DNA of 64,000 nucleotides from an uncultured Actinomycetota bacterium (GTDB lineage Bacteria; Actinomycetota; Actinomycetes; Propionibacteriales; Nocardioidaceae). Below the pieces are notes generated by a model that saw only the letters and a list, made by a program, of their open reading frames with translations, made no database searches and was not told the origin of the DNA. Within the stretch, counting starts at the first letter, position 1. Every line of letters starts with the position of its first letter. The DNA lies in contig CAVYMY010000001.1 of the NCBI GenBank assembly GCA_963769755.1, positions 90,243-154,242 of the forward strand, given 5' to 3'. A program made the position numbers and the translations under genes. Shown here in pieces: positions 17,051 to 28,132 of this stretch.

Positions 17051-17476
17051 GTGGTCATGACCGACCCCACCCGCGTCTACGTCGACATGGTGGGCGACCT
17101 CTTCCATGCCGGTCACGTTGCCTTGCTGCGCGCCGCGCGGGAGCTCGGCGACTACCTGGTCGTCGGAGTTCTTTCCGACGAGACGGTGGCTGCCTACAAG
17201 CGGCGGCCGATCATGAGTCTTGCGGAGCGAGTTGCCGTGGTCGAGGCATGTCGGTACGTCGACGAGGTGATCCCGGATGCTCCCGCCCGACTCACCGCGG
17301 AGTTCCTCGACGAGCACAAGCTCGCGCTCGTGGTCCACGGCGATGACCTCGATGTCGACGCCGCCGCTGACGTCTATGGACCGGCCGTGGAGACCGGCCG
17401 GCTCCGCCTGGTCCCGCGAAACGGCGCCATCTCTACGACCGACCTGATTGCCCGGGTGCGCAGCCGCTCAGACTGA
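17051..17476 (+). CDS. stand-alone cytidylyltransferase (TagD/ECT-like, HxGH superfamily)
   Basis: DLFHAGH, VGVLSD, YKRRPIM, RYVDEV, HGDD, ISTT. Confidence 0.85.
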   Translation: MVMTDPTRVYVDMVGDLFHAGHVALLRAARELGDYLVVGVLSDETVAAYKRRPIMSLAERVAVVEACRYVDEVIPDAPARLTAEFLDEHKLALVVHGDDLDVDAAADVYGPAVETGRLRLVPRNGAISTTDLIARVRSRSD

Positions 17477-17508
17477 ACGCCACGCGATGTCGGCGGCCCG
17501 ACCGTCGG

Positions 17509-18087
17509 TCAGCGTGACTGCACTGCGTTCCACACGAACGTGGCGGTGGCTTTCGATCGCTGGAACGCGTTGTCGACCGACGCTCCTTCTTCCGGCAGCG
17601 AAACCTCGAACCGATAGGTTCGCTGCTCGCCCGGCGTCCAGGTGCCGAGGTCGACGTCGAGCTCGGCCAGCGGCCCGGCCCAGATCGCGTTGGGGTGGTC
17701 TTCGTCGTACACGTCGAGGTGGAGCCATGACGAGAGGACGCCGCCGTTGGGGCCGACCTCGTCGGCGACGTTCTGGACCTGCAGCGTGAAGTCGCCGCTG
17801 GCCTCGCCGACGTTCTCGATCGTGGCCGAGCCCTTCACGACGTCGCCCGGGATCAGGCCGACAGCCTTCATGATGGCGGTGTTTCCGGCGCTGTTGTCCT
17901 GGGTCATTCTCCCGGCGCTGACGGTGTTCTTCGGGTTCGCCGACGATGACGTGAACAGGCCGAAGGTCCAGCTCGCCCCGACAAGCGTCGCGACCAGCAG
18001 GAGGACGACCGCCAGGATCCAACGTGATGCGGTGGAGCTGAGCCAACGAAGCCGGTCAAGGGCACTCGGCTCACTGTCGGTGGTCAC
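17509..18087 (-). CDS. TasA/CalY-like secreted protein 3 (SipW-class signal peptide)
   Basis: GTG overlaps the upstream stop (GTGA); signal ...GASWTFG-LFTSSSANPKN; LIPGD...ATIENVG, LGTW.PGE...F.V, FQ...A.F.W.A; clearly paralogous to 20312..20890. Confidence 0.75.
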   Translation of the reverse strand: MTTDSEPSALDRLRWLSSTASRWILAVVLLLVATLVGASWTFGLFTSSSANPKNTVSAGRMTQDNSAGNTAIMKAVGLIPGDVVKGSATIENVGEASGDFTLQVQNVADEVGPNGGVLSSWLHLDVYDEDHPNAIWAGPLAELDVDLGTWTPGEQRTYRFEVSLPEEGASVDNAFQRSKATATFVWNAVQSR

Positions 18088-19133
18088 GGTTCGGTCCCCC
18101 AGACGAGTACGCCGTCGAGGTACGCGGTGACCTTCGTCGTGCTGGCGAAGGTCGTGTTGGTGCCGTGGCTGTAGTCGTCGCGCTCGTCGAAGTTTGAGAA
18201 GTCGGACTTGTTGACTCGCAGCTGCATCTGCCCGGAGCTGGTCCCGGCCTCGAGGGTGCCGGCCGCGAAGCCGACCTCGAGGTAGGAGTCCGCCCCCGGG
18301 CGGACCGGGTTGACCTTGCCGAAGCTCGTGGTGACCTTCCCGCAGCCGGCGTCCGCGTAGTCGCAGAACCCCAGCAACGGGCTCGTGCCTTCGGCGGTGA
18401 ACCAGTAGCGCAAGGTCAGGCGGGCTGGGTCGAGGTCCACCGTGCCGGTGTTGACGACCTTCAGTCCAGGTTTGATGACGTTGTTCAGCGGGTCCGGGTC
18501 GAGGTTGGCGTACTGCACCTCCACGGACTCGACATCGTCGAGGGGCCTCGGTTCGATGCCCCACACCAGCTGCCCGTCGACATAGACGGTGACTCGCTCG
18601 TTGTCGGTGAAACTTCCCTTGTTGAGGAAGCTGTGGTCGTTGCTCTGGGTGTAGTTCGCTCCGGTCGGGTCACGGATGGCGAGCTGGTCGAGCGACGCCG
18701 ACGCGCCGGGAGCGAGGACGCCGCTGGTGAAGGCGATCTCCGCATAGTGGTCAGCGCCCTCGAGCCGGTCGGGCAGGTCGACGGCGGACTGATGGATGTT
18801 GCCGCAGCCGAAGGCCGCGTAGTAGCAGGCGACCACCGGCAGGGCGGTGCTGCCGTCCGACGTGAACCAGTACCGCATCGTGACGGTGTCGAGGTCGATC
18901 TGCTCCGTGCCGGTGTTCTTCAGCCGCAGGCCGTACTGGATCTGGGGGCTTGCCGCACCGCCGTCGTTGGTCCGGGACTGGGCGACCAGGTCGGTTCGGG
19001 TCGGGGGAGCACCCCCGGCCGTGAACGTCTGCGGGTTCGACTTGTGGGTGGTGAAAGCCGCGCCGGCCGTCGAAGCGGCTGCGAGAAGCGCGGTCCCGAT
19101 CGCGAGGGCGATGAGCGCGGCCGGGCGCCTCAC
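18084..19133 (-). CDS. secreted non-catalytic protein with two tandem CBM3 cellulose-binding modules and a SipW-class signal peptide
   Basis: Signal ...TAGA-AFTTHKSNPQTF; each module has L.L.NTG..LD...T.RYWFT..G, GAD.Y.E..F, N....D.S and V..Y.DG.LVWG.EP, the hallmarks of CBM3; no GH domain, cohesin or LPXTG. Confidence 0.85.
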   Translation of the reverse strand: MRRPAALIALAIGTALLAAASTAGAAFTTHKSNPQTFTAGGAPPTRTDLVAQSRTNDGGAASPQIQYGLRLKNTGTEQIDLDTVTMRYWFTSDGSTALPVVACYYAAFGCGNIHQSAVDLPDRLEGADHYAEIAFTSGVLAPGASASLDQLAIRDPTGANYTQSNDHSFLNKGSFTDNERVTVYVDGQLVWGIEPRPLDDVESVEVQYANLDPDPLNNVIKPGLKVVNTGTVDLDPARLTLRYWFTAEGTSPLLGFCDYADAGCGKVTTSFGKVNPVRPGADSYLEVGFAAGTLEAGTSSGQMQLRVNKSDFSNFDERDDYSHGTNTTFASTTKVTAYLDGVLVWGTEP

Positions 19134-19750
19134 GTGACGACCTTCTGCGGCGGTTCGGCCGGATCCTGCCCGGCCTGATCCTGCTCGCGGCGCTGCTCGC
19201 GGACACCGTCGCCGGACACCCGCCACAGCGTGACGATGATGTAGACGATCAGGGCGATCGACGGGATTGCGATGGCCACGACCTGGACCCACCGGACCTG
19301 AAGGGCCATGTAGACATACCCGACGTAGGGGATGTGGCGGACGTAGCGGGCTTGGTCGGGGCCGTCGAGCACCATCTCCCACGGGTCGACGTCCTCGTTC
19401 GCGTCCCCCTTGGTCTGGAAGATCCGCTCGCCCGGGTGGCTGCTGTTCTTGCCGGCCGAGGTGATCTTGACGACGCGGTGGGTCACGGGGTCGTCGATCC
19501 CGTACTCCGGCGGTGGGACGAACGTAATGATGTCGCCGACCTCGATGTCGCCGACCGGAACCACCTCGTCGTAGACGACCGATCCGACCGGGATGGTCGG
19601 AACCATCGAGCCGCTGACGATGACGTATCGCTCGAAACCGAGCAGCGTGGGCACGACCATGAGGGCGGCGAGCAGCAGCGCTGCGACCATGACCACCGTC
19701 GTGAGGATCGACACCACCCGGCGCCGCATGGGGTGGGTGCGGTCGCTCAC
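19130..19750 (-). CDS. sipW: SipW-type (ER/archaeal-type) signal peptidase I
   Basis: SGSMVP (catalytic Ser), GDIITF, VTHRV (catalytic His), TKGDAN, IPYVGY; GTGA overlaps on both sides. Confidence 0.92.
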   Translation of the reverse strand: MSDRTHPMRRRVVSILTTVVMVAALLLAALMVVPTLLGFERYVIVSGSMVPTIPVGSVVYDEVVPVGDIEVGDIITFVPPPEYGIDDPVTHRVVKITSAGKNSSHPGERIFQTKGDANEDVDPWEMVLDGPDQARYVRHIPYVGYVYMALQVRWVQVVAIAIPSIALIVYIIVTLWRVSGDGVREQRREQDQAGQDPAEPPQKVVT

Positions 19751-20304
19751 TGGACCGACTCCAGCCGCCAGTCGAAGGTGAGGCTTGCGCTGGTGCCATC
19801 CAGAGCCGGTGCGTCCTGGCTCGCGGGCCAGGTGACCTTGAACGTGTAGGTCCGACGCTCGTCCTTCTCCATCGTGCCGAGCTGGACGGACCCCAAGCCC
19901 GTGAGGGGTCCGTCGTAGACCGGCGCCGTTGCCGCCGGAGCGGTCTGTCGGATCGAGATGTTCAAGACCTTGCTGAGCGGCTGGGTCTGGTCGAGTCCCT
20001 GGGCTGCGAGAACCAGAAGGCCGCGGTGCCCGGTGTTGGTGACGGACTGGTCTCCGCTGCGCACGTCCCCGGGCCGCATCCCGGCACCGTCGACGACCTG
20101 GCCGATGACCGTGAGGTCCAGGCCCATCCCTGCGGTCGCGAACTCGTTGCCCGGTGACCTCGAGGTCGAGTTGAAGTAGGCGCCGGAGAAACCGATCACG
20201 GTGACGACGACAAGCGCCATCACGCCGCCTGCGATCAGGATGCCGAGCAGCCGTCGGTCACCCAGGAACCTGTGCCGGCTCGCCGGTTCCGGAGCCGTTG
20301 TCAT
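19747..20304 (-). CDS. TasA/CalY-like secreted protein 2 (SipW-class signal peptide)
   Basis: Signal ...IGFSGA-YFNSTSRSPGN; MRPGD...VTNTG, VYDGPL, LGT..KDE..YTF.VTWP, LTFDW. Confidence 0.75.
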   Translation of the reverse strand: MTTAPEPASRHRFLGDRRLLGILIAGGVMALVVVTVIGFSGAYFNSTSRSPGNEFATAGMGLDLTVIGQVVDGAGMRPGDVRSGDQSVTNTGHRGLLVLAAQGLDQTQPLSKVLNISIRQTAPAATAPVYDGPLTGLGSVQLGTMEKDERRTYTFKVTWPASQDAPALDGTSASLTFDWRLESVQ

Positions 20305-20311
20305 GCGGGGC

Positions 20312-20890
20312 TCAGGAGGTGCTCTGCGTGGCGTCCCAAGTGAAGTCGAGGGTCGTCTGCGCGTCCTGGTACTCGTTCCCGGCTGCGGCGTCGAAGGTCA
20401 CCGTGAACGTGAAGTTGTGCGTCTCACCGGCCGCCCAGGTGCCGAGATCGACGGTGGTGACCGCCCCGAGCTTGCCTGTGTAGACCTCGTCCGTCCCGTC
20501 CGTGATGACCAGATCCACCACCTGTGAGAACGGCGGTGTCGACGGGGTGTCCACCAGGTTGCTGGCCGTCAACGTGAAGTCACCGTCAGCGTCGCCGACG
20601 TTGGTGATCGATACGGTCCCGTCGCCGGACTCTCCCGGAAGCAGGTCCTCGACCGTGAGGATGGCCTTCCCGTCCTCCGAGTTGTCCTGTTCCATGATGC
20701 CGCTCGTCGCGATGTTTCCTGGGTTGGCCGAGCTGCTGCCGAAGAGGCTGAACGAGAACGTGACGACCAGTGCCGCGATGACAAGGACGACGAGCGCAAC
20801 GATCAGCTTGGTCGAGTTCTTGCCCATCCAGGCCAAGCGTTCCTGAGCGGTAGGGTCGGTGGCCGGCTCAGGCTGCGGTGTGGTGGTCAT
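20312..20890 (-). CDS. TasA/CalY-like secreted protein 1 (probable major subunit, first gene of the operon)
   Basis: Signal ...TFSFS-LFGSSSANPGN; LLPGESGDGTVSITNVG, VYTGKL, AGNEYQ...LDFTWDATQ, the CalY/TasA beta-sandwich pattern. Confidence 0.8.
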   Translation of the reverse strand: MTTTPQPEPATDPTAQERLAWMGKNSTKLIVALVVLVIAALVVTFSFSLFGSSSANPGNIATSGIMEQDNSEDGKAILTVEDLLPGESGDGTVSITNVGDADGDFTLTASNLVDTPSTPPFSQVVDLVITDGTDEVYTGKLGAVTTVDLGTWAAGETHNFTFTVTFDAAAGNEYQDAQTTLDFTWDATQSTS

Positions 20891-21054
20891 AGCGTTCCCC
20901 GATCGTCGGCTTAGTCCACCTGTCGATGGTCGCGCCTAGTCCCGGGCCTGACATCCCCCGAAGCGGGTGACCTGTCGAGGTGCCGCACGAGGTCGAGTTC
21001 GGCGCCTCGCCAGGCTCCGAGCATGGCAAGCGCGCGCGCTCAGGAGACGAAGAA

Positions 21055-21079
21055 CGGAAGGGAGTCCCGCTCCCTTCCG
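21055..21079. terminator. perfect 10-bp hairpin, terminator-like or insulator
   Basis: CGGAAGGGAG-tcccg-CTCCCTTCCG; followed by TTCTTC on the minus strand and TATTT on the plus strand. Confidence 0.45.
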
Positions 21080-21101
21080 TATTTAACGTATAACGCATCG
21101 G

Positions 21102-21120
21102 GGGGCTTGCGGCAAGGCCC
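21102..21120 (+). promoter_or_regulatory. rifamycin-associated element (RAE)
   Basis: 19-bp imperfect inverted repeat GGGGCTTGCGGCAAGGCCC, 54 bp upstream of helR and just after a TATAAC -10-like hexamer; matches the RAE consensus as I recall it. Confidence 0.8.
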
Positions 21121-21174
21121 CCTTCAGGCTGCAGAATCGCCGGCCGTGGCCAGAACCTACTCGGAGTTGATGCC

Positions 21175-23343
21175 GTGAATCCCGTGACTACCACCGCGTT
21201 CGACCTGCCCGACCACCTCGCGCCCAAGGCCGATGCCGCGCTGATCGCCCGCGACGAGGAGCACTTCGCGGCCATCGCGAGCAGCCTCGAGCACTCGATC
21301 GCCGACCTGTCGGACCGGCTCGATGCCGCGCGCAGGGAGGCCGGCGGGACGGGCCAGGAAGCCATGGACCGCGACCTCGAGGTGCACCGGCTGACCGGCC
21401 GCCTGCGGACCCTGCGTCGCTTCGGTCTCGACCTCTGCCTCGGGCACATGGTCACGGCAGCCGACCAGGAGCCCGTGTACGTCGGCCGGCTCGGCCTGAC
21501 CGACAGCGCCGGTCGCCGGCTCCTGGTCGACTGGCGCTCGCCCGCGGCCGAGCCGTTCTTCGGAGCGACTCATGCCAACCCGATGGGTCTGTCGAGCCGC
21601 CGCCGCTATCGCTGGACCCGTGGCCGGATCAGCGACTACTGGGACGAGGTGTTCACCGCCGACGGGTTCGACGGGCACGCCGCAGCCCTCGACGACCAGT
21701 CCGCTTTCATCGCCAGCCTGGGCAGCAGCCGGTCGCCCCGGATGCGCGACGTGCTCGCGACCATCCAGGCCGACCAGGACACAATCATCCGCGCCGGATC
21801 CCGCGGCGCGCTGGTCGTCGACGGCGGGCCGGGCACGGGCAAGACCGTCGTGGCGCTGCACCGCACGGCGTACCTGCTGTACTCCGATCCGCGCCTGGGT
21901 CACCGCCGGGGCGGCGTGCTGTTCGTCGGTCCGCACCAGCCCTACCTGGCGTACGTCGCCGACGTCCTCCCGAGCCTGGGGGAGGAGGGCGTGCAGACGT
22001 GCACGCTGCGCGACCTCGTCCCCGACGGCGCTGCGGCGGCGGTCGAAGCCGACCCCGACGTGGCCCTCCTGAAGTCGTCCGTGGACATGGTGAAGGCGAT
22101 CGAGCCGGCCGTGCGGCTCTACGAGGAGCCACCCACCGAGGGACTGGAGGTCGAGACCCCGTGGGGCGACCTCTGGCTCAGCGCCGACGAGTGGGCGGAG
22201 GCGTTCGAGTCGCCCGATCCCGGCATGCCGCACAACGAGGCGCGCGACCAGATCTGGGAGGAGCTGGTCGCCATCCTCGGTGACAAGCTGGACGACGAGG
22301 ACGTCTCGCCCGAAGAGCTGCGCGGCTCGCTGCTCCGGAACGAGGAACTGGTGTCGACCCTCGGCAAGGCGTGGCCGTTGCTGGAGGCGACCGACCTGGT
22401 CGGCGACCTCTGGTCAGTGCCGGCGTACCTGCGGATGTGTGCCCCCTGGCTCGGGCCAGACGAGGTCCGCAGGCTGCAACGCCGGGATCCGCAGGCCTGG
22501 ACCGTCTCCGACCTGCCGCTCCTGGACGCGGCCCGGCACCGGCTCGGCGACCCCGAGGCATCGCGTCGCAAGCGCCGGCAGGAGGCGGCCCTGGCCGCCC
22601 AGCGGGAGGAGATGTCCCGGGTCGTCGATCACCTCATCGAGACCGACGACTCCGACATGCAGGTGATGTCGATGCTGCGCGGGGACGACCTGCGGGACAA
22701 GTGGGTCGACGAGGCGGCGCTGCCGGGCGCCGACCCAGACCTGCTGGCCGGCCCGTTCGCGCACATCGTCGTGGACGAGGCGCAAGAGCTGACCGACGCC
22801 GAGTGGCAGATGCTGCTGCGCCGTTGCCCGTCGCGGAGCCTCACCGTCGTCGGCGACCGCGCGCAGGCCCGGCACGGGTTCACGGAGTCGTGGGAGGAGC
22901 GACTCGAGCGGATCGGGCTCGACAACGTCAACCTGGCGTCGTTGAGCATCAACTACCGGACGCCGGAAGAAGTCATGGCCGAAGCCGAGCCGGTCATCCG
23001 GGCCGTGCTCCCGGACGCCAACGTGCCGACCTCGATCCGCAGCGGCGGCGTCCCCGTCGTGCACGGCTCTGTCTCGGGGCTGCGCTCGATCCTCGACTCC
23101 TGGCTGGCCGAGCATGACGACGGGATCGCGTGCGTCATCGGCGTCGGTGAGCTCGAGGACGGCACTCTGCCTGCGACGTCCCGCGTTCGGTCACTCACTC
23201 CGGAGCTGTCGAAGGGCCTCGAGTTCGACCTGGTGGTCCTCATCGACCCGGACACGTTCGGCGACGGCATCGAAGGGGCCGTCGACCGCTATGTGGCGAT
23301 GACCCGTGCGACCCAGCAGCTCGTCATCCTGACGAGCCCGTGA
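21175..23343 (+). CDS. helR: RNA polymerase recycling motor ATPase HelR (HelD family, rifamycin target protection)
   Basis: N-terminus AFDLPDHL..KAD..LIA.DE.HF; TIQADQD, GGPGTGKT, VVDEAQE, VGDRAQ, NYRTP, KGLEFD, YVAMTRAT; upstream RAE. Confidence 0.92.
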   Translation: MNPVTTTAFDLPDHLAPKADAALIARDEEHFAAIASSLEHSIADLSDRLDAARREAGGTGQEAMDRDLEVHRLTGRLRTLRRFGLDLCLGHMVTAADQEPVYVGRLGLTDSAGRRLLVDWRSPAAEPFFGATHANPMGLSSRRRYRWTRGRISDYWDEVFTADGFDGHAAALDDQSAFIASLGSSRSPRMRDVLATIQADQDTIIRAGSRGALVVDGGPGTGKTVVALHRTAYLLYSDPRLGHRRGGVLFVGPHQPYLAYVADVLPSLGEEGVQTCTLRDLVPDGAAAAVEADPDVALLKSSVDMVKAIEPAVRLYEEPPTEGLEVETPWGDLWLSADEWAEAFESPDPGMPHNEARDQIWEELVAILGDKLDDEDVSPEELRGSLLRNEELVSTLGKAWPLLEATDLVGDLWSVPAYLRMCAPWLGPDEVRRLQRRDPQAWTVSDLPLLDAARHRLGDPEASRRKRRQEAALAAQREEMSRVVDHLIETDDSDMQVMSMLRGDDLRDKWVDEAALPGADPDLLAGPFAHIVVDEAQELTDAEWQMLLRRCPSRSLTVVGDRAQARHGFTESWEERLERIGLDNVNLASLSINYRTPEEVMAEAEPVIRAVLPDANVPTSIRSGGVPVVHGSVSGLRSILDSWLAEHDDGIACVIGVGELEDGTLPATSRVRSLTPELSKGLEFDLVVLIDPDTFGDGIEGAVDRYVAMTRATQQLVILTSP

Positions 23344-23359
23344 GTCGACCGGCTGACAT

Positions 23360-24601
23360 TCAGACGATCGCCTCGTCGGCGGCGGCCGGCTCGGCGGGTA
23401 CGACGTCCTCGGACTTCATCGACGGTCGGGCGTCGTCGGCGGGGCCGAGGCCGGCGTACGCGCGGGCCATCCGGTTGACGAACTGGTAGACGCCGTCCTC
23501 CTCCGGGGCCATCGGACCGGGGATGGCGTGCGGGCTGGTGAGGCCACGTTGCACCGCCTCGCAGGCCGCCCAGTCCTGGCGGTTGGTGATGTCCCAGAAG
23601 TCCACGGCGTACGACGGGTCGAACCCCTCGCGCTCGGCCACGTGGCGCGGGAACGCCCACGAGCACTCGACGAACGTGCGGTCGGCAGCGAGCGGCCGCA
23701 GCGTGTGGGTCATCACGTAGTCGGGGTGCAGGCTGATCAGCAGGTTCGGGAAGGCCACCAGGTACATCACCGTGCGCAGCTCGACGTCGGTCAGTCCCTC
23801 GATCGCCACGCCACCGCTACGCCCGTCGAGCGACATGGTGTCGGCGTCGGGCACCAGGTCCATCCAGCCCCCCATCCACTCGCCGTCGGGCTCGAGGTTC
23901 TCGCCGCTCTGGGGCGGGCTGACGCGGCACAGCTCGGGGTGGATCGAGGGGCAGTGATAACACTCCTGGTAGTTCTCGGCGATGATCTTCCAGTTCGTCT
24001 CGAGCTCGTAGGAGTGCGACGCGACGGTGACCAGGTCCTCGGGGCGGTAGTTGGCGACGATCTGTTCGAGACCGGCGGCGTGCTCCTCGAACGACCCGCC
24101 CTCACCACTGGGGTCCACGAACACCCAGCCGTGCCACTCCACGACGTTCAGCTCGACCAGGCCGAACTGCGTCTTGTCGAAGTCCGGGAGGTCGCGGAAG
24201 CCGCCGGGAGCGTTGCGCAGCGAGCCATCGAGCTTGTAGTTCCAGCCGTGGTAGGGGCAGACGATCGATCGCTTGCTGACCGACACCCCGCATGCGACGA
24301 GCTCATGACCACGATGGCGGCAGACGTTCGCGAAGGCGCGCAGCGTGCCGTCCTCGCCGCGCACCAGCAGCACTCCGCCGGCGCCGGTCTCGACCGCGGT
24401 CTGGGCGCCGGTCTCGGCGAATCTCTCCCCGCGACCCAGGCACATCCACCCGGAGAAGACGTTGGCCTGCTCCCAGTCGTAGACCGCCGGGTCGACGTAC
24501 GCGAGGCGGGGCAGCATCCGGGAAGTCCCAAAGGGGGCGTACGCCGTCGCCACCTCGTCGGCGGGGAGCGGGGCGACGGTGCCGCGCAACTGATTGAACA
24601 T
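23360..24601 (-). CDS. Rieske non-heme iron oxygenase alpha subunit (GbcA/choline monooxygenase-like)
   Basis: CRHRG...CPYHGW Rieske ligands; ENYQECYHCPSIH mononuclear Fe ligands; QDW.ACE.VQRG. Confidence 0.9.
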   Translation of the reverse strand: MFNQLRGTVAPLPADEVATAYAPFGTSRMLPRLAYVDPAVYDWEQANVFSGWMCLGRGERFAETGAQTAVETGAGGVLLVRGEDGTLRAFANVCRHRGHELVACGVSVSKRSIVCPYHGWNYKLDGSLRNAPGGFRDLPDFDKTQFGLVELNVVEWHGWVFVDPSGEGGSFEEHAAGLEQIVANYRPEDLVTVASHSYELETNWKIIAENYQECYHCPSIHPELCRVSPPQSGENLEPDGEWMGGWMDLVPDADTMSLDGRSGGVAIEGLTDVELRTVMYLVAFPNLLISLHPDYVMTHTLRPLAADRTFVECSWAFPRHVAEREGFDPSYAVDFWDITNRQDWAACEAVQRGLTSPHAIPGPMAPEEDGVYQFVNRMARAYAGLGPADDARPSMKSEDVVPAEPAAADEAIV

Positions 24602-24609
24602 GCAGTCAA
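24594..24609. promoter_or_regulatory. putative TetR/BetI-type operator, copy 1 (overlaps the Rieske gene start codon)
   Basis: TTGAACATGCAGTCAA. Confidence 0.65.
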
Positions 24610-24669
24610 TCCTAGGGTTCGGGGTCGATGGGGTCCAGCGTTGCACGCGCCCGACTTCCCGGCACTCGA

Positions 24670-24685
24670 TTGAACAACCGTTCAA
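24670..24685. promoter_or_regulatory. putative TetR/BetI-type operator, copy 2
   Basis: TTGAACAACCGTTCAA with perfect 6-bp arms, 19 bp upstream of the GcvT-family gene. Confidence 0.65.
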
Positions 24686-24704
24686 CCAGTGGCAGGCTGC
24701 GTCC

Positions 24705-27237
24705 ATGTCGCTCGACTTCACCGCCATCAATCCCTCCGCTGCCCGGGCCGAGGCCGCATCGCCATCTCCCTCCGGTGAGCTCCCGAGCCGGGCGCAGTAC
24801 GTCGTCGTCGGCGGCGGCGTGATCGGGACGTCGATCGCCTATCACCTCGCGCTGCTGGGTGCGACCGACGTGGTGCTCCTGGAGCGCAAGCAGCTCACCT
24901 CGGGCACCACCTGGCACGCCGCGGGAGAGATCGTCTCGGGCGGCACGACGGAGGACGCGCTGTGGATGGCGCGCTACTCCGCCGAGCTCTATGCCCGGCT
25001 CGAGGAGGAGACGGGGCTCTCCACGGGGTTCCGCCAGTGCGGCTACCTCCAGCTGGCCACGACGCCACGCGCCGACGAGAGCCTGCGCCGCGAGACGGCG
25101 TACATGCGCTCGGTGGGGATGGCCAAGGAGGTGCTGTCGCCGCGTGAGGTGGCCGACCTGGTGCCGCTGATGCGCACCGACGACGTCATCCACGGCTTCT
25201 GGACCGCCGACGAGGGACGGGCCAACCCGGTCGACGTGACGATGTCGATGGCCAAGGGTGCCCGGCAGCGAGGCGTGCGGATCTTCGAGAACACCGAGGT
25301 CACCGGCTTCGCCCTCGACCGCGGCAAGGTCGTCGGCGTCCGCACCGAGCGCGGCGACATCGAGTGCGAGAAGGTCGTGCTCGCCGCCGGGCTGTGGGGT
25401 CGCGAGCTGGCGGCCAAGGCGGGTGTCACCGTGCCGCTCCAGGCCGCGGAGCACTACTACCTGCTCACCGAGCCCATCGCCGGAGTCACGCCGGAGTCGG
25501 TGCCGGTGATCGAGGACGGCGAGGCCTACGGCTACTACCGCGAGGAGGGCGGCGGCCTGCTGGTCGGGATGTTCGAGCCGGTCGCGAAGGCCTGGGCCCT
25601 GGACGGTACGCCGCGAGACAGCGCGTTCGCCGTGCTCCCGCCCGACTGGGACCGGATGGGGCCGTTCCTGGAGGTCGCGATGCGGCGCTTCCCGGCGCTA
25701 GAGGACGTCGGGATCCGCACGCTCTTCTGCGGGCCGGAGAGCTTCACCGACGACCTGTCACCGATGCTGGGTGAGTCTCCCGAGGTCGACAACCTCTACC
25801 TCGCCTGCGGTCTGAACTCGGTCGGCATCCTCTCCGGTGGCGGCCTCGGCCACATGATGGCGCAGTGGCTGATCGAGGGGCACCCACCGCTCGACGTCAC
25901 GAGCGTCGGCGTCGACCGGGCGCACGAGTTCCAGGCGACCCGGCAGTTCCGTGAGGAACGCACCGTGCAGCGGCTGGGCTTCCTGCTCAACGACCTGTCC
26001 TGGCCGAACGCCCAGAACCAGCACGCCCGCAACGTGCGCCGGTCGCCGTACCACGCCCAGCACGTCGCCGACGGCGCCCACTTCGTCGCCACCAGCGGCT
26101 GGGAGTACCCCGACTACTTCGCCGGGCCGGGCGTGACTCCGACCGTGGCGTGGGGCTACGCGCGCGGCGAGGCGTTCGAGCGCACCCGCGAGGAGCACCT
26201 GCAGGCCCGCGAGAACCTCGCGATCTTCGACCTGTCGCTGATGTCGCACCACCTCGTGCAGGGGCCCGACGCGATGGCCGTGCTCAACCGGGTCTGCGCC
26301 AACGACGTCGACACCCCGGCCGGGCGGCTCGTCTACACCCAGTGGCTCGACGAACGCGGCGGCATCATCGCCGACGTCACGGTCACCCGGCTGGCCGAGG
26401 ACACCTACGTCGTGATCAGCGGCGACAACATCCACCGCCGGGTGCCGGCCTGGATCCGCCGCCAGACCCGCGAGGCCGAGTTCGTCACGGTCACCGACGT
26501 CACCGGCAGCTACTCGATGCTGTCGGTGCAGGGCCCTAGGTCTCGCGAGCTGCTGCAGCGACTCAGCCCGAACGACTGGTCGGACGCCGCCTTTCCCTAC
26601 CTCACGGCTCAGAAGGTCGAGCTCGGCTACACCCCGCTCTGGGCGTTGCGGGTGACGTACGTCGGTGAGCTGGGCTGGGACCTGATGGTCCCCACCGAGT
26701 TCGGTGCCACGCTCTACGACCAGCTGCGAGAGGCCGGTGCGGAGCTCGGCTCATCCGGGGAGTTCCGCCCCACCGGCGTCGGCGCGCTGGAGACGATGCG
26801 ACTGGAGAAGGCCTTCCGCGACATGGGCCACGACATCGACTCCACGGACACGCCGCTCGAGGCCGGGCTCGGCTTCGCGGTCGCCTGGGACAAGCCCGGC
26901 GGCTTCGTCGGCCGCGACGCGCTGCTCAAGCAGCGCGAGTCCGGTCCGCTGACCAGTCGGCTGGTCAACGTGCTGCTCGACCTCGCCCGACTACGACCTC
27001 TACGGCGACGAGCCGGTCTACTGGGACGGCAAGCCTGTCGGTCACGTCCGCAGCGGCGGTTTCGGCCACTCGCTGGGCGCAGCGTGCGGGATCGCCGGGA
27101 TCGGCCGCGACGAGGGCATCACCGCCGCCGACCTGGGCGCCGGCTCTTTCGAGATCGACGTCGCGGGCACCAGGGTGCCGGCCCAGGTGTCGCTGAAGCC
27201 GTTCTTCGACCCGGCTCGGTCGCGCATCCTCGGCTGA
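24705..27237 (+). CDS. GcvT-family FAD/THF-dependent amine oxidoreductase (dimethylglycine/sarcosine dehydrogenase-like), one frameshift near 26980
   Basis: VVGGGVIG, SGTTWHAAG, GPESFT, GWEYP, FDLS, YVGELGW, MRLEK; the last ~85 aa (DLYGDEPV...PFFDP.R.RI) lie in a second frame. Confidence 0.9.
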
Positions 27238-27256
27238 TCGCGCGACGTCGGCGGGC

Positions 27257-28132
27257 CTACGTCTCGCCGGTGAAGGAGCCGATCGACTCCTTGGTGCCGG
27301 CGCGACGTCCGAGCCACCGGTAGACGAAGAAGCCCAGGGTCACCGCGAGCAGGGCGGCGACGAGCATCAGCGTGGCCAGCGCGTTGAGCGCGGGCGTCGG
27401 CGCCGCGCGAGCGGTCTGGTAGATCTTCACCGACGTCGGCTCGGTGGTGGAGTCGCCCGACAGGTAGCGGACGATCACGAAGTCGTCGATCACGTCGGCG
27501 AAGACCAGGACGGCGCTCGCGACGATCGCCGGCACCAGCATCGGCAGGATCACCCGGCGCTGGGCAGAGATCGGCGACGCGCCGAGATCCATCGCGGCCT
27601 CCTCGAGGTCGGTGCCGATGGTCGCCAGCCGGGCCCGCACGAGGATCGCCGGATAGGACAGCTGGAAGGTCACCAGGCCGATGACCTGCGCGGTCGTGCC
27701 CAGGGTGAACGGCAGGACCAGCTGGGTCACCACCAACAGGAGAGCGACCGCCAGCAGCGTCTCGGGAATCACGAACGACAGCAGCAGCATGGAGTTGGCG
27801 GTGCTCGGCAGCCGGCCGCGCCAGCGGTCCAGCCCGATGGCCAGCGCGACGCCGAGGGGCACGGTGACCAGCGTGGTCAGCACGCCGAGCTTGAGGGTCT
27901 GCACGAGCGCCTGCTGGAGCGCGTCGTCATGCCAGACCGAGCGCAGCGGGTCGCCGTAGTACCAGCGCATCGAGAACCCCTGCCAGCTGGTGCGGGAGCG
28001 CCCGTCGTTGAAGGAGAACAACGCCGCTACCAGCACCGGCAGCAGCGACCAGAGCAGATAGAGGATGGTGACCGCCGCGAGCACCCGGGGCTTGCGCCAC
28101 GGGTCGCGCCACCAGGTGGTCGGCGCCCTCAT
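27257..28132 (-). CDS. polyamine-type ABC transporter permease (PotC-like)
   Basis: FSFNDG, GFS..WY, EEAAMDLGA EAA loop, DDF. Confidence 0.9.
   Translation of the reverse strand: MRAPTTWWRDPWRKPRVLAAVTILYLLWSLLPVLVAALFSFNDGRSRTSWQGFSMRWYYGDPLRSVWHDDALQQALVQTLKLGVLTTLVTVPLGVALAIGLDRWRGRLPSTANSMLLLSFVIPETLLAVALLLVVTQLVLPFTLGTTAQVIGLVTFQLSYPAILVRARLATIGTDLEEAAMDLGASPISAQRRVILPMLVPAIVASAVLVFADVIDDFVIVRYLSGDSTTEPTSVKIYQTARAAPTPALNALATLMLVAALLAVTLGFFVYRWLGRRAGTKESIGSFTGET

Follow-up and report, generated by a model that had tools for sequence, protein, structure and literature searches.

A tandem-CBM3 protein of a soil actinobacterium as a candidate initiator and tip adhesin of a TasA-like donor-strand fibre

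Donor-strand fibres and the tandem-CBM3 operon

Within a TasA fibre, subunit n+1 has its β-sandwich completed by the N-terminal strand of subunit n (residues 28-38), and a subunit extends its own strand only after it has itself been complemented (PMC9674648). The most conserved interface between the protomers is a "proline box" made of F29, P62 and Q232 (PMC10151520). Here we describe a locus in a window of 64,000 nucleotides from an uncultured bacterium of the Nocardioidaceae (assembly GCA_963769755.1, contig CAVYMY010000001.1, positions 90,243 to 154,242), which consists of actinobacterial DNA of about 70% guanine plus cytosine. Five tightly coupled minus-strand genes of this window, in the order T1-T2-sipW-CBM-T3, code for three TasA-like proteins (T1, T2 and T3), a SipW-type signal peptidase and, from the fourth gene, an exported protein with a pair of carbohydrate-binding modules of family 3 (CBM3), hereafter the CBM protein.

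TapA (YqxM), encoded in the tapA-sipW-tasA operon of Bacillus subtilis, has been proposed as the supplier of the first donor strand, found only at the start of the filament (PMC10151520, PMC9674648). For biofilm formation residues 44-57 of TapA are enough, the AFHDI motif of TapA resembles the AFNDI of TasA (PMC10151520), and AlphaFold-Multimer places the TapA strand in the groove of TasA (PMC9674648). In the Tat-fimbriae of haloarchaea (tafi locus), TafC has been modelled both as a tip adhesin and as the initiator that supplies the first strand (PMC11821415), and the model for BsaA of Clostridium perfringens has the growing end with its free donor strand at the membrane (PMC11580942). The literature on the TasA superfamily describes accessory components, some of them a "predicted tip", that vary in structure, and TasA homologues are known from Actinomycetota (bioRxiv 10.64898/2026.01.04.697558). 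Our literature search retrieved no paper that links SipW systems with CBM3, with cellulose binding or with Nocardioides. To our knowledge, TapA does not occur beyond B. subtilis and its close relatives. What we take to be new here, with slightly more conviction than doubt, is a TapA-like donor-only initiator that carries a tandem CBM3 as its cargo in a conserved operon of Nocardioides type.

The reading that we favour, at a confidence a little better than even, is that the CBM protein of this soil actinobacterium acts as an initiator that supplies the first donor strand of a TasA-like fibre and as the tip adhesin of this fibre, in analogy to TapA and TafC. The features of a TapA-like initiator are present, namely an operon with SipW and TasA-like genes, a donor-strand-like N-terminus with Phe at position 2 and a complete body without a groove; the insertion of its strand into a T subunit, the initiator role and the location at the tip are predicted. 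The genes T1-T2-sipW-CBM-T3 would be co-translated, and the four structural proteins would be exported through Sec and cut to their mature form by the operon's own SipW-type peptidase. Cleavage after Ala25 would free the peptide AFTTHKSNPQTFTA on a flexible Pro-rich tether, and the freed peptide would enter a T subunit (T3 or T1 most likely) at its acceptor groove, as a β-strand in which Phe27 replaces the subunit Phe equivalent to F29 of TasA. The complemented subunit would then let go of its own N-terminal strand and capture the next subunit, and the fibre would grow by donor-strand exchange. As a TasA subunit must first be complemented, growth would run from the free donor strand, and as the CBM3 modules are complete sandwiches without a groove, the CBM protein would be confined to the origin end of the fibre, where it would display its tandem CBM3. 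With the growing end at the membrane, as in the BsaA model, the initiator would finish distally as a CBM3 tip, and by this analogy the origin end is probably the distal tip of the fibre.

The original prediction for this gene held that the protein donates a strand, cannot accept one and sits at one end of the fibre with its CBM3 on display, which fits the operon, the peptide and the fold data. It also had the protein terminate the fibre as a cap, and here we correct the end of growth to its start, as the donor-only proteins of TasA-type systems start fibres and growth takes place at the other end. A cap that closes the terminal subunit's open groove and thereby limits fibre length would draw on the fact that a donor-only protein should block elongation at the groove end, and the translational coupling to T3 could fix the ratio of cap to subunit. 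In the TasA model, however, the fibre grows from its free donor strand, and a donor-only protein is unable to bind to this end (PMC9674648), and both TapA and TafC are assigned to initiation and not to termination; we regard such a cap as improbable.

More speculatively, and with doubt outweighing confidence, Nocardioides-type actinobacteria may build a sortase-independent donor-strand fibre with a tandem-CBM3 distal tip, nucleated by and tethered to cellulose or another β-glycan of plant litter or of the community's own matrix. If the tip is tethered in this way, its two CBM3 surfaces would give it two specificities, for example for the substrate and for the matrix or cell wall. The locus offers a clean, conserved and experimentally tractable case of the initiation of TasA-like fibres in another phylum, and as the type of carbohydrate-binding module that forms the cargo is well understood, its ligand is open to direct assay. 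If the initiator reading is true, the design of a donor-only peptide plus cargo recurs with interchangeable cargo (an immunoglobulin (Ig) domain, vWA, laminin-G and CBM3), soil actinobacteria can couple the assembly of protein fibres to polysaccharide surfaces, and the short peptide could serve as a tag for grafting arbitrary domains onto TasA-like fibres.

The CBM protein resembles TapA in being encoded beside sipW with overlapping reading frames, in its Sec signal peptide and in the A-F start of the mature protein, which is like the donor strand of the subunit (AFHDI in TapA, AFNDI in TasA and AFTTH in the CBM protein). In both proteins a flexible N-terminal segment precedes a complete, unrelated β-sandwich body that is unable to accept a strand. 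This body is a V-set Ig domain with an acidic tail in TapA whereas it consists of two CBM3 modules here, and the predicted ligand of the CBM protein is a polysaccharide such as cellulose, whereas TapA is associated with the cell envelope. The systems also differ in that sipW lies upstream in the present operon, that three TasA-like paralogues stand in place of one, and that the host belongs to Actinomycetota and not to Bacillota. As the CBM protein had no TapA/YqxM match in Pfam or NCBIfam, we treat it as an analogue of TapA and not as a member of its family.

The tafi locus of TafC likewise contains a dedicated signal peptidase I along with major and minor or adapter subunits, and TafC joins an N-terminal donor strand to a carbohydrate- or adhesion-type domain, which is laminin G-like. 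It differs in its export by Tat and its pilin-like domain, and its position too comes mainly from AlphaFold; tafi also codes for a membrane anchor subunit, TafF, whose equivalent is not evident in the CBM operon. BsaC of the C. perfringens sipW-bsaA-bsaB-bsaC operon is another non-TasA accessory protein with an adhesion-type domain (vWA) that accompanies SipW and two or three TasA-like subunits, but it is secreted as a monomer (PMC11580942). BsaA subunits are locked by an isopeptide bond between N35 and K74 (PMC11580942), and we rejected a similar "exchange and lock" mechanism for the CBM operon, in which T1-T3 have no conserved Lys and the Gln of the CBM protein does not align with the Asn of the T family. 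FimH and PapG also place a lectin or carbohydrate-binding module at the distal tip of a donor-strand-exchange fibre, with the adhesin as the first subunit to be incorporated. They are evolutionarily unrelated and opposite in polarity, as FimH has an acceptor pilin domain without a donor strand whereas the CBM protein is a donor without an acceptor, and the CBM system operates without chaperone, usher or outer membrane.

The CBM protein and its N-terminal peptide

After the predicted cleavage between A-G-A and A-F the mature CBM protein begins AFTTHKSNPQTFTAGG, the cleavage site after Ala25 being placed by analogy with TasA (TWA/AFNDI). Conservation in the CBM protein was counted over 43 orthologues, in which F27 (mature position 2) and Q35 were invariant down to 38% identity and A23, A25, T28 and A39 were conserved in at least 90% (T28 and A39 in about 98%). 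The peptide A26-A39 ranks among the most conserved parts of the protein, and the Pro-rich linker behind it is poorly conserved and varies from 7 to 17 residues. The predicted local distance difference test (pLDDT) of the AlphaFold2 (AF2) model falls below 50 over the peptide, which argues that it is not packed on the CBM3 modules.

Aligned by their Phe, the mature N-termini read LFGSSSANPGNIATSG in T1, LFTSSSANPKNTVSAG in T3, YFNSTSRSPGNEFATA in T2, AFTTHKSNPQTFTAGG in the CBM protein and AFNDIKSKDATFASGT in TasA, the last of which was checked against PDB 8aur. In the numbering of the mature chains, the CBM peptide, T1 and T3 have F2, N8-P9 and G16 in common, and the N-terminus of T2 is the least CBM-peptide-like of the three T proteins. 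As hidden Markov models (HMMs) of such short peptides failed to cross-detect, we scored the likeness with an ungapped, fixed-register BLOSUM62 profile built from the N-termini of T1-T3, with 62,682 random 16-mers of the window as the null. The N-terminus of the CBM protein scored 21.2 (null mean -12.7, standard deviation 6.4, z 5.3), a value reached by none of the random 16-mers and by 0.035% of shuffles. Register 0 alone scored high, the neighbouring registers giving 4.6 or less, and the scores for the single subunits of the window were 30 for T3, 21 for T1 and 5 for T2. Against a profile of the CBM peptide, the N-terminus of TasA scored 15.4, within the top 6e-5 of the null, and that of TapA only 2.9. 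The presequences differ, with 25 residues of AXA type in the CBM protein and about 48 residues with an ERLxW motif and a long transmembrane helix in T1-T3; as they are wholly different, the part in common is the mature N-terminus and not the signal peptide. The parallel between the N-termini of the CBM protein and the TasA-like proteins that had been claimed earlier is thus real in its register, but modest in extent.

Behind the peptide, Pfam CBM_3 (PF00942) matches the CBM protein twice (E 6e-35; 119.9 bits against a cut-off of 22.4). The AF2 model, built with the 43 orthologues, has a pLDDT of 90.3 overall and above 90 across both modules, and lays out a signal-peptide helix (3-20), an unstructured stretch (22-35, pLDDT <50), a low-confidence linker and two β-sandwiches (49-198 and 203-349). 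By Foldseek a CBM module superposes on the CBM3 structure 6d5b with a target template modelling (TM) score of 0.95 and a root mean square deviation of 1.0, and the model and Foldseek together give both modules the nine-stranded β-sandwich fold of CBM3. Searched alone, module 1 matched 2l8a (E 5e-31) and 2wnx, the CBM3b' of Cel9V (E 5e-22), and module 2 matched 6d5b (E 8.5e-38) and 1nbc (E 1e-27), with a residue-level alignment. As all 349 residues are assigned, the protein contains neither a catalytic domain nor a TasA-like body, as had been said of it from the sequence at first sight.

The planar strip of the CipA CBM3a is formed by W118, H57 and Y67 together with the R112/D56 pair (PMC9586272). 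The sites of D56, H57, R112 and W118 are occupied by D258, Y259, R306 and F312 in module 2, and by Y104, Y105, A152 and G158 in module 1. R306 and an aromatic residue at position 312 were each kept in 38/43 orthologues, and A152 and G158 of module 1 in 37 and 39 of them; the description of module 2 as canonical and of module 1 as lacking the Arg and the aromatic residue therefore applies to the whole family. The loop carrying Y67 in CipA is absent from both modules, as it is from the Bacillus and Caldicellulosiruptor CBM3s 2L8A and 6D5B. From these residues module 2 is predicted to have the canonical flat cellulose-binding strip, minus the Y67 loop, and to bind cellulose. As the differences between the modules are kept in the orthologues, both surfaces appear to be under selection and yet unlike each other, and we propose that module 1, with its conserved but different surface, may differ in ligand or role.

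Both modules are bona fide CBM3 folds like the CBM3a and CBM3b of cellulosomal scaffoldins and of Bacillus and Caldicellulosiruptor glycoside hydrolases (1NBC, 2L8A, 6D5B), with the Asp, aromatic, Arg and aromatic residues kept in module 2, and module 1 is like the CBM3b' of Cel9V (2WNX) in having no equivalent of the Trp. Unlike in the scaffoldins and hydrolases, no enzyme or scaffoldin is attached, and a non-canonical and a canonical module stand as a pair behind a short peptide only. The same two-type tandem, the first module with "YY" and without the Arg and the second with "DY..R..aromatic", was also observed in Bacteroidota and Chloroflexi (loci L010-L045, e.g. L014:1948-7173 and L022:1888-7230), where it makes up the C-terminal 310 or so residues of proteins of about 600 to 2,400 residues. 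As the same tandem ends these large proteins, the pair of a YY-type and a canonical CBM3 looks like an old and mobile di-domain unit.

The fibre subunits, their peptidase and the alternatives

T1 has a presequence of about 48 residues, with the ERLxW motif and the transmembrane helix, ahead of its mature N-terminus. Its AF2 model shows a confident β-sandwich body from which the N-terminus (residues 50-64, pLDDT <50) is free, and the best match of this model by TM score was monomeric TasA (5of1_B, 0.44/0.44 over 173 columns, probability 1.0), with AbpA, an archaeal bundling pilin, in second place (7ueg, 0.36). A profile of 74 T-family sequences retrieved 5,190 cluster representatives at E <= 1e-3, among them P0261 (E 2.3e-34) and P0300 (E 5.6e-31), both of which lie above the gathering score of Peptidase_M73 (24.1 and 27.2 bits). 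Weak Peptidase_M73 matches were found in 26/74 members of the family (best 1.6e-4). Among PDB entries TasA (5of1 and 8aur) gave the top profile matches, colinear at both ends and not significant (E 0.12-0.15), and T2 matched the BsaA family TIGR04090 at E 7.5e-4, below the cut-off.

T1, T2 and T3 align as paralogues, and the proline box of TasA has equivalents in the family: F50 (TasA F29) in 25/26 sequences and P85 (TasA P62) in 24/26, with Q189 (TasA Q232) in 8/8 of T1, in 9/9 of T3 and in none of T2. All three equivalents are kept in 9/9 of T3. From the family profile links, the rank of TasA as top PDB and TM match, the T1 model and the proline-box residues, we conclude that T1-T3 are remote members of the TasA/camelysin superfamily, apparently served by a dedicated SipW-type peptidase; T2 may be a minor or adapter subunit. 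That the operon holds three TasA-like proteins, as the original prediction had it, is thus borne out at a remote level by profile homology and by the proline box of T1 and T3.

The peptidase itself scored 79.7 bits against TIGR02228, the archaeal or endoplasmic reticulum (ER)-type signal peptidase I (cut-off 51.85), and also matched Pfam Peptidase_S26, and its SGSM, THRV and GDAN motifs could be read directly in the sequence. Against the Bacillus SipW equivalog NF046067 it reached 78.6, with a cut-off of 190; as this cut-off was missed, the enzyme shares the type of Bacillus SipW without being its orthologue. The presequences with the cytoplasmic ERLxW motif and the long transmembrane helix lie at 20745-20890 (T1), 20160-20304 (T2) and 17945-18087 (T3) of the window. 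A long signal peptidase I presequence, of 54 residues, has also been reported for AbpX.

Some of the sequences matched by the T-family profile carry further domains. In P0310 the subunit body is fused to Laminin_G_3, and in P0297 and P0323 to Big and PASTA domains, the latter of which could act as a peptidoglycan anchor; judged by their domains, these proteins represent what is seemingly an alternative design of body plus cargo. P0218, in which RPE65 and a T domain are combined, looks like a fused gene call.

Several results weigh against the initiator reading. The window proteins T1-T3 themselves miss the cut-offs of Pfam and NCBIfam, T1 and T2 reaching 14.1 and 15.5 bits (E 0.016 for T2) against the 22.5 of Peptidase_M73 and T3 giving no match, and the Foldseek search of T1 against the PDB returned no match at E <= 1e-3, so that only the TM ranking favours TasA. 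Taken absolutely, the likeness of the CBM peptide is weak, with 4-5 identities over 16 residues, and its invariant Q35 has no counterpart in T1-T3 or TasA. HMMs of the 16-18-residue N-terminal peptides did not detect each other in either direction between the T proteins and the CBM protein, and in a co-variation test the CBM peptide showed no difference between the T N-termini of its own genome and those of other genomes. The TapA result of Roske et al. in addition suggests that a donor-only protein may act transiently and not stay at the end of the fibre.

The negative outcomes of the short HMMs and of the co-variation test speak for a reading in which the CBM protein is co-secreted from the same operon with the same SipW but stays outside the fibre, with its peptide serving as a recognition or processing determinant for SipW or in some other role after cleavage, and with the protein soluble or embedded in the matrix, where it might coat cellulose or cross-link polysaccharides. 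Known SipW substrates are all alike around the cleavage site and processing could thus explain the likeness, and BsaC of C. perfringens, secreted as a monomer, offers a precedent as it has no known role in the fibre (PMC11580942). However, the specificity of signal peptidase I normally lies at -1 and -3 whereas the conservation here reaches +2, +3, +10 and +14, and, the CBM and T presequences being wholly different, the likeness is confined to the mature N-terminus. The invariant Phe moreover corresponds to the key residue of the TasA donor strand, and a flexible tether such as that of the peptide is what a donated strand would have. We judge the free protein, whether soluble or matrix-bound, to be unlikely.

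The result of Roske et al. bears on a different role, that of a transient chaperone or nucleator whose strand switches a T monomer to the polymerisation-competent form and is then displaced, with the CBM3 localising nucleation to cellulose surfaces and not being displayed on the fibre. TapA has been termed a "specific chaperone" and its nuclear magnetic resonance signals remained unchanged while TasA polymerised (PMC10151520), and the sequence evidence for a stable initiator applies equally to a transient one. An inserted strand is, however, normally kinetically trapped in donor-strand systems, and nothing in the operon would displace the first strand; we hold this role to be rather unlikely, a shade more so than the free protein.

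Operon layout and distribution

The feature first marked at 18084-19133 proved to be exactly one minus-strand gene of 349 codons plus stop. It starts with a GTG that overlaps the TGA stop of sipW as GTGA, and its own TGA stop overlaps the GTG start of T3; the start codon is supported by orthologues that begin with MRR at the same position. Start and stop codons thus overlap at T2/sipW, sipW/CBM and CBM/T3 (Table 1). A scan of 17200-21400 for promoters and terminators found nothing above the expectation from shuffled sequence.

Table 1. Features of the T1-T2-sipW-CBM-T3 operon in the window
Feature	Position	Strand	Description
T1	20312..20890	-	192 aa; putative TasA/camelysin-superfamily fibre subunit; mature N-terminus LFGSSSANPGNIATSG
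T2	19747..20304	-	185 aa; divergent paralogue of T1/T3; mature N-terminus YFNSTSRSPGNEFATA
SipW-type (archaeal/ER-type) signal peptidase I	19130..19750	-	206 aa
Gene of the CBM protein (CBM3 x2)	18084..19133	-	349 aa plus stop, GTG start
Signal peptide, classical Sec	19059..19133	-	25 aa, MRRPAALIALAIGTALLAAASTAGA; predicted cleavage A-G-A/A-F
Conserved mature N-terminal peptide A26-A39, proposed donor strand	19017..19058	-	AFTTHKSNPQTFTA
Pro-rich linker, variable	18990..19016	-	residues 40-48; from length and conservation in 43 orthologues
CBM3 module 1, non-canonical	18540..18989	-	residues 49-198; matches 2l8a, 2wnx
CBM3 module 2, canonical	18087..18527	-	residues 203-349; matches 6d5b, 1nbc
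T3	17509..18087	-	192 aa; paralogue of T1, GTG start; mature N-terminus LFTSSSANPKNTVSAG

About 58 full-length orthologues of the CBM protein were found, all of about 350 residues. In the species-representative genomes, every locus with an orthologue (9/9) keeps the order T1-T2-SipW-CBM-T3; these belong to Nocardioides sp. URHA0020 and SR21, N. caricicola JCM 17686, N. agri MAH-18 and five metagenome-assembled genomes (MAGs) of Actinomycetota. The four most divergent metagenome loci examined have the same order, giving 13/13 in total, and no orthologue occurred outside the SipW/T context among these 13 loci. Two other groups of CBM3 proteins (L010-L080) were considered and set aside as not belonging to this system, as no SipW or T genes lie nearby: further tandem CBM3s in very large proteins of Bacteroidota and Chloroflexi, and single CBM3s of Streptomyces xylanases and GH12 enzymes.

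The operon is flanked by divergent or convergent unrelated genes, a UvrD-like helicase and a cytidylyltransferase. These and the other neighbours, including a methyltransferase and a two-component system, were inspected and gave no functional link to cellulose or biofilm. Further away on the plus strand, the last 120 or so residues of a 909-residue open reading frame resembling FAD-oxidase/GcvT (24594-27323) are rich in Arg and Pro and look out of frame, and this odd C-terminus may come from an error in assembly or from a frameshift.

In several metagenome or MAG copies of the operon (P0049, L006 and L009 in the SipW and T1 regions, and L083) genes are fused or split by frameshifts, which most likely arose in assembly; in P0049 the CBM protein and T3 form one chain, confirming the adjacency of both genes. 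A different SipW operon was found at L081:6001-8797 (ENA ERZ25039464 contig_79352), with a T-like subunit of 191 residues (Peptidase_M73 E 3.4e-4) and a SipW, followed by a 208-residue protein that has the GANFN N-terminus of this subunit and no Pfam domain. The last gene product, of 340 residues, lacks a donor motif and combines a T-like body with a Pro linker and a C-terminal domain that is basic. The 208-residue protein may be another donor-only protein with cargo, and the 340-residue protein an anchor that only accepts a strand. One divergent locus has, two genes downstream of the operon, a gene with a PilZ domain (L084:5522-6151, E 1.2e-5) that was not seen in the window; it is a possible link to cyclic di-GMP and the control of exopolysaccharide.

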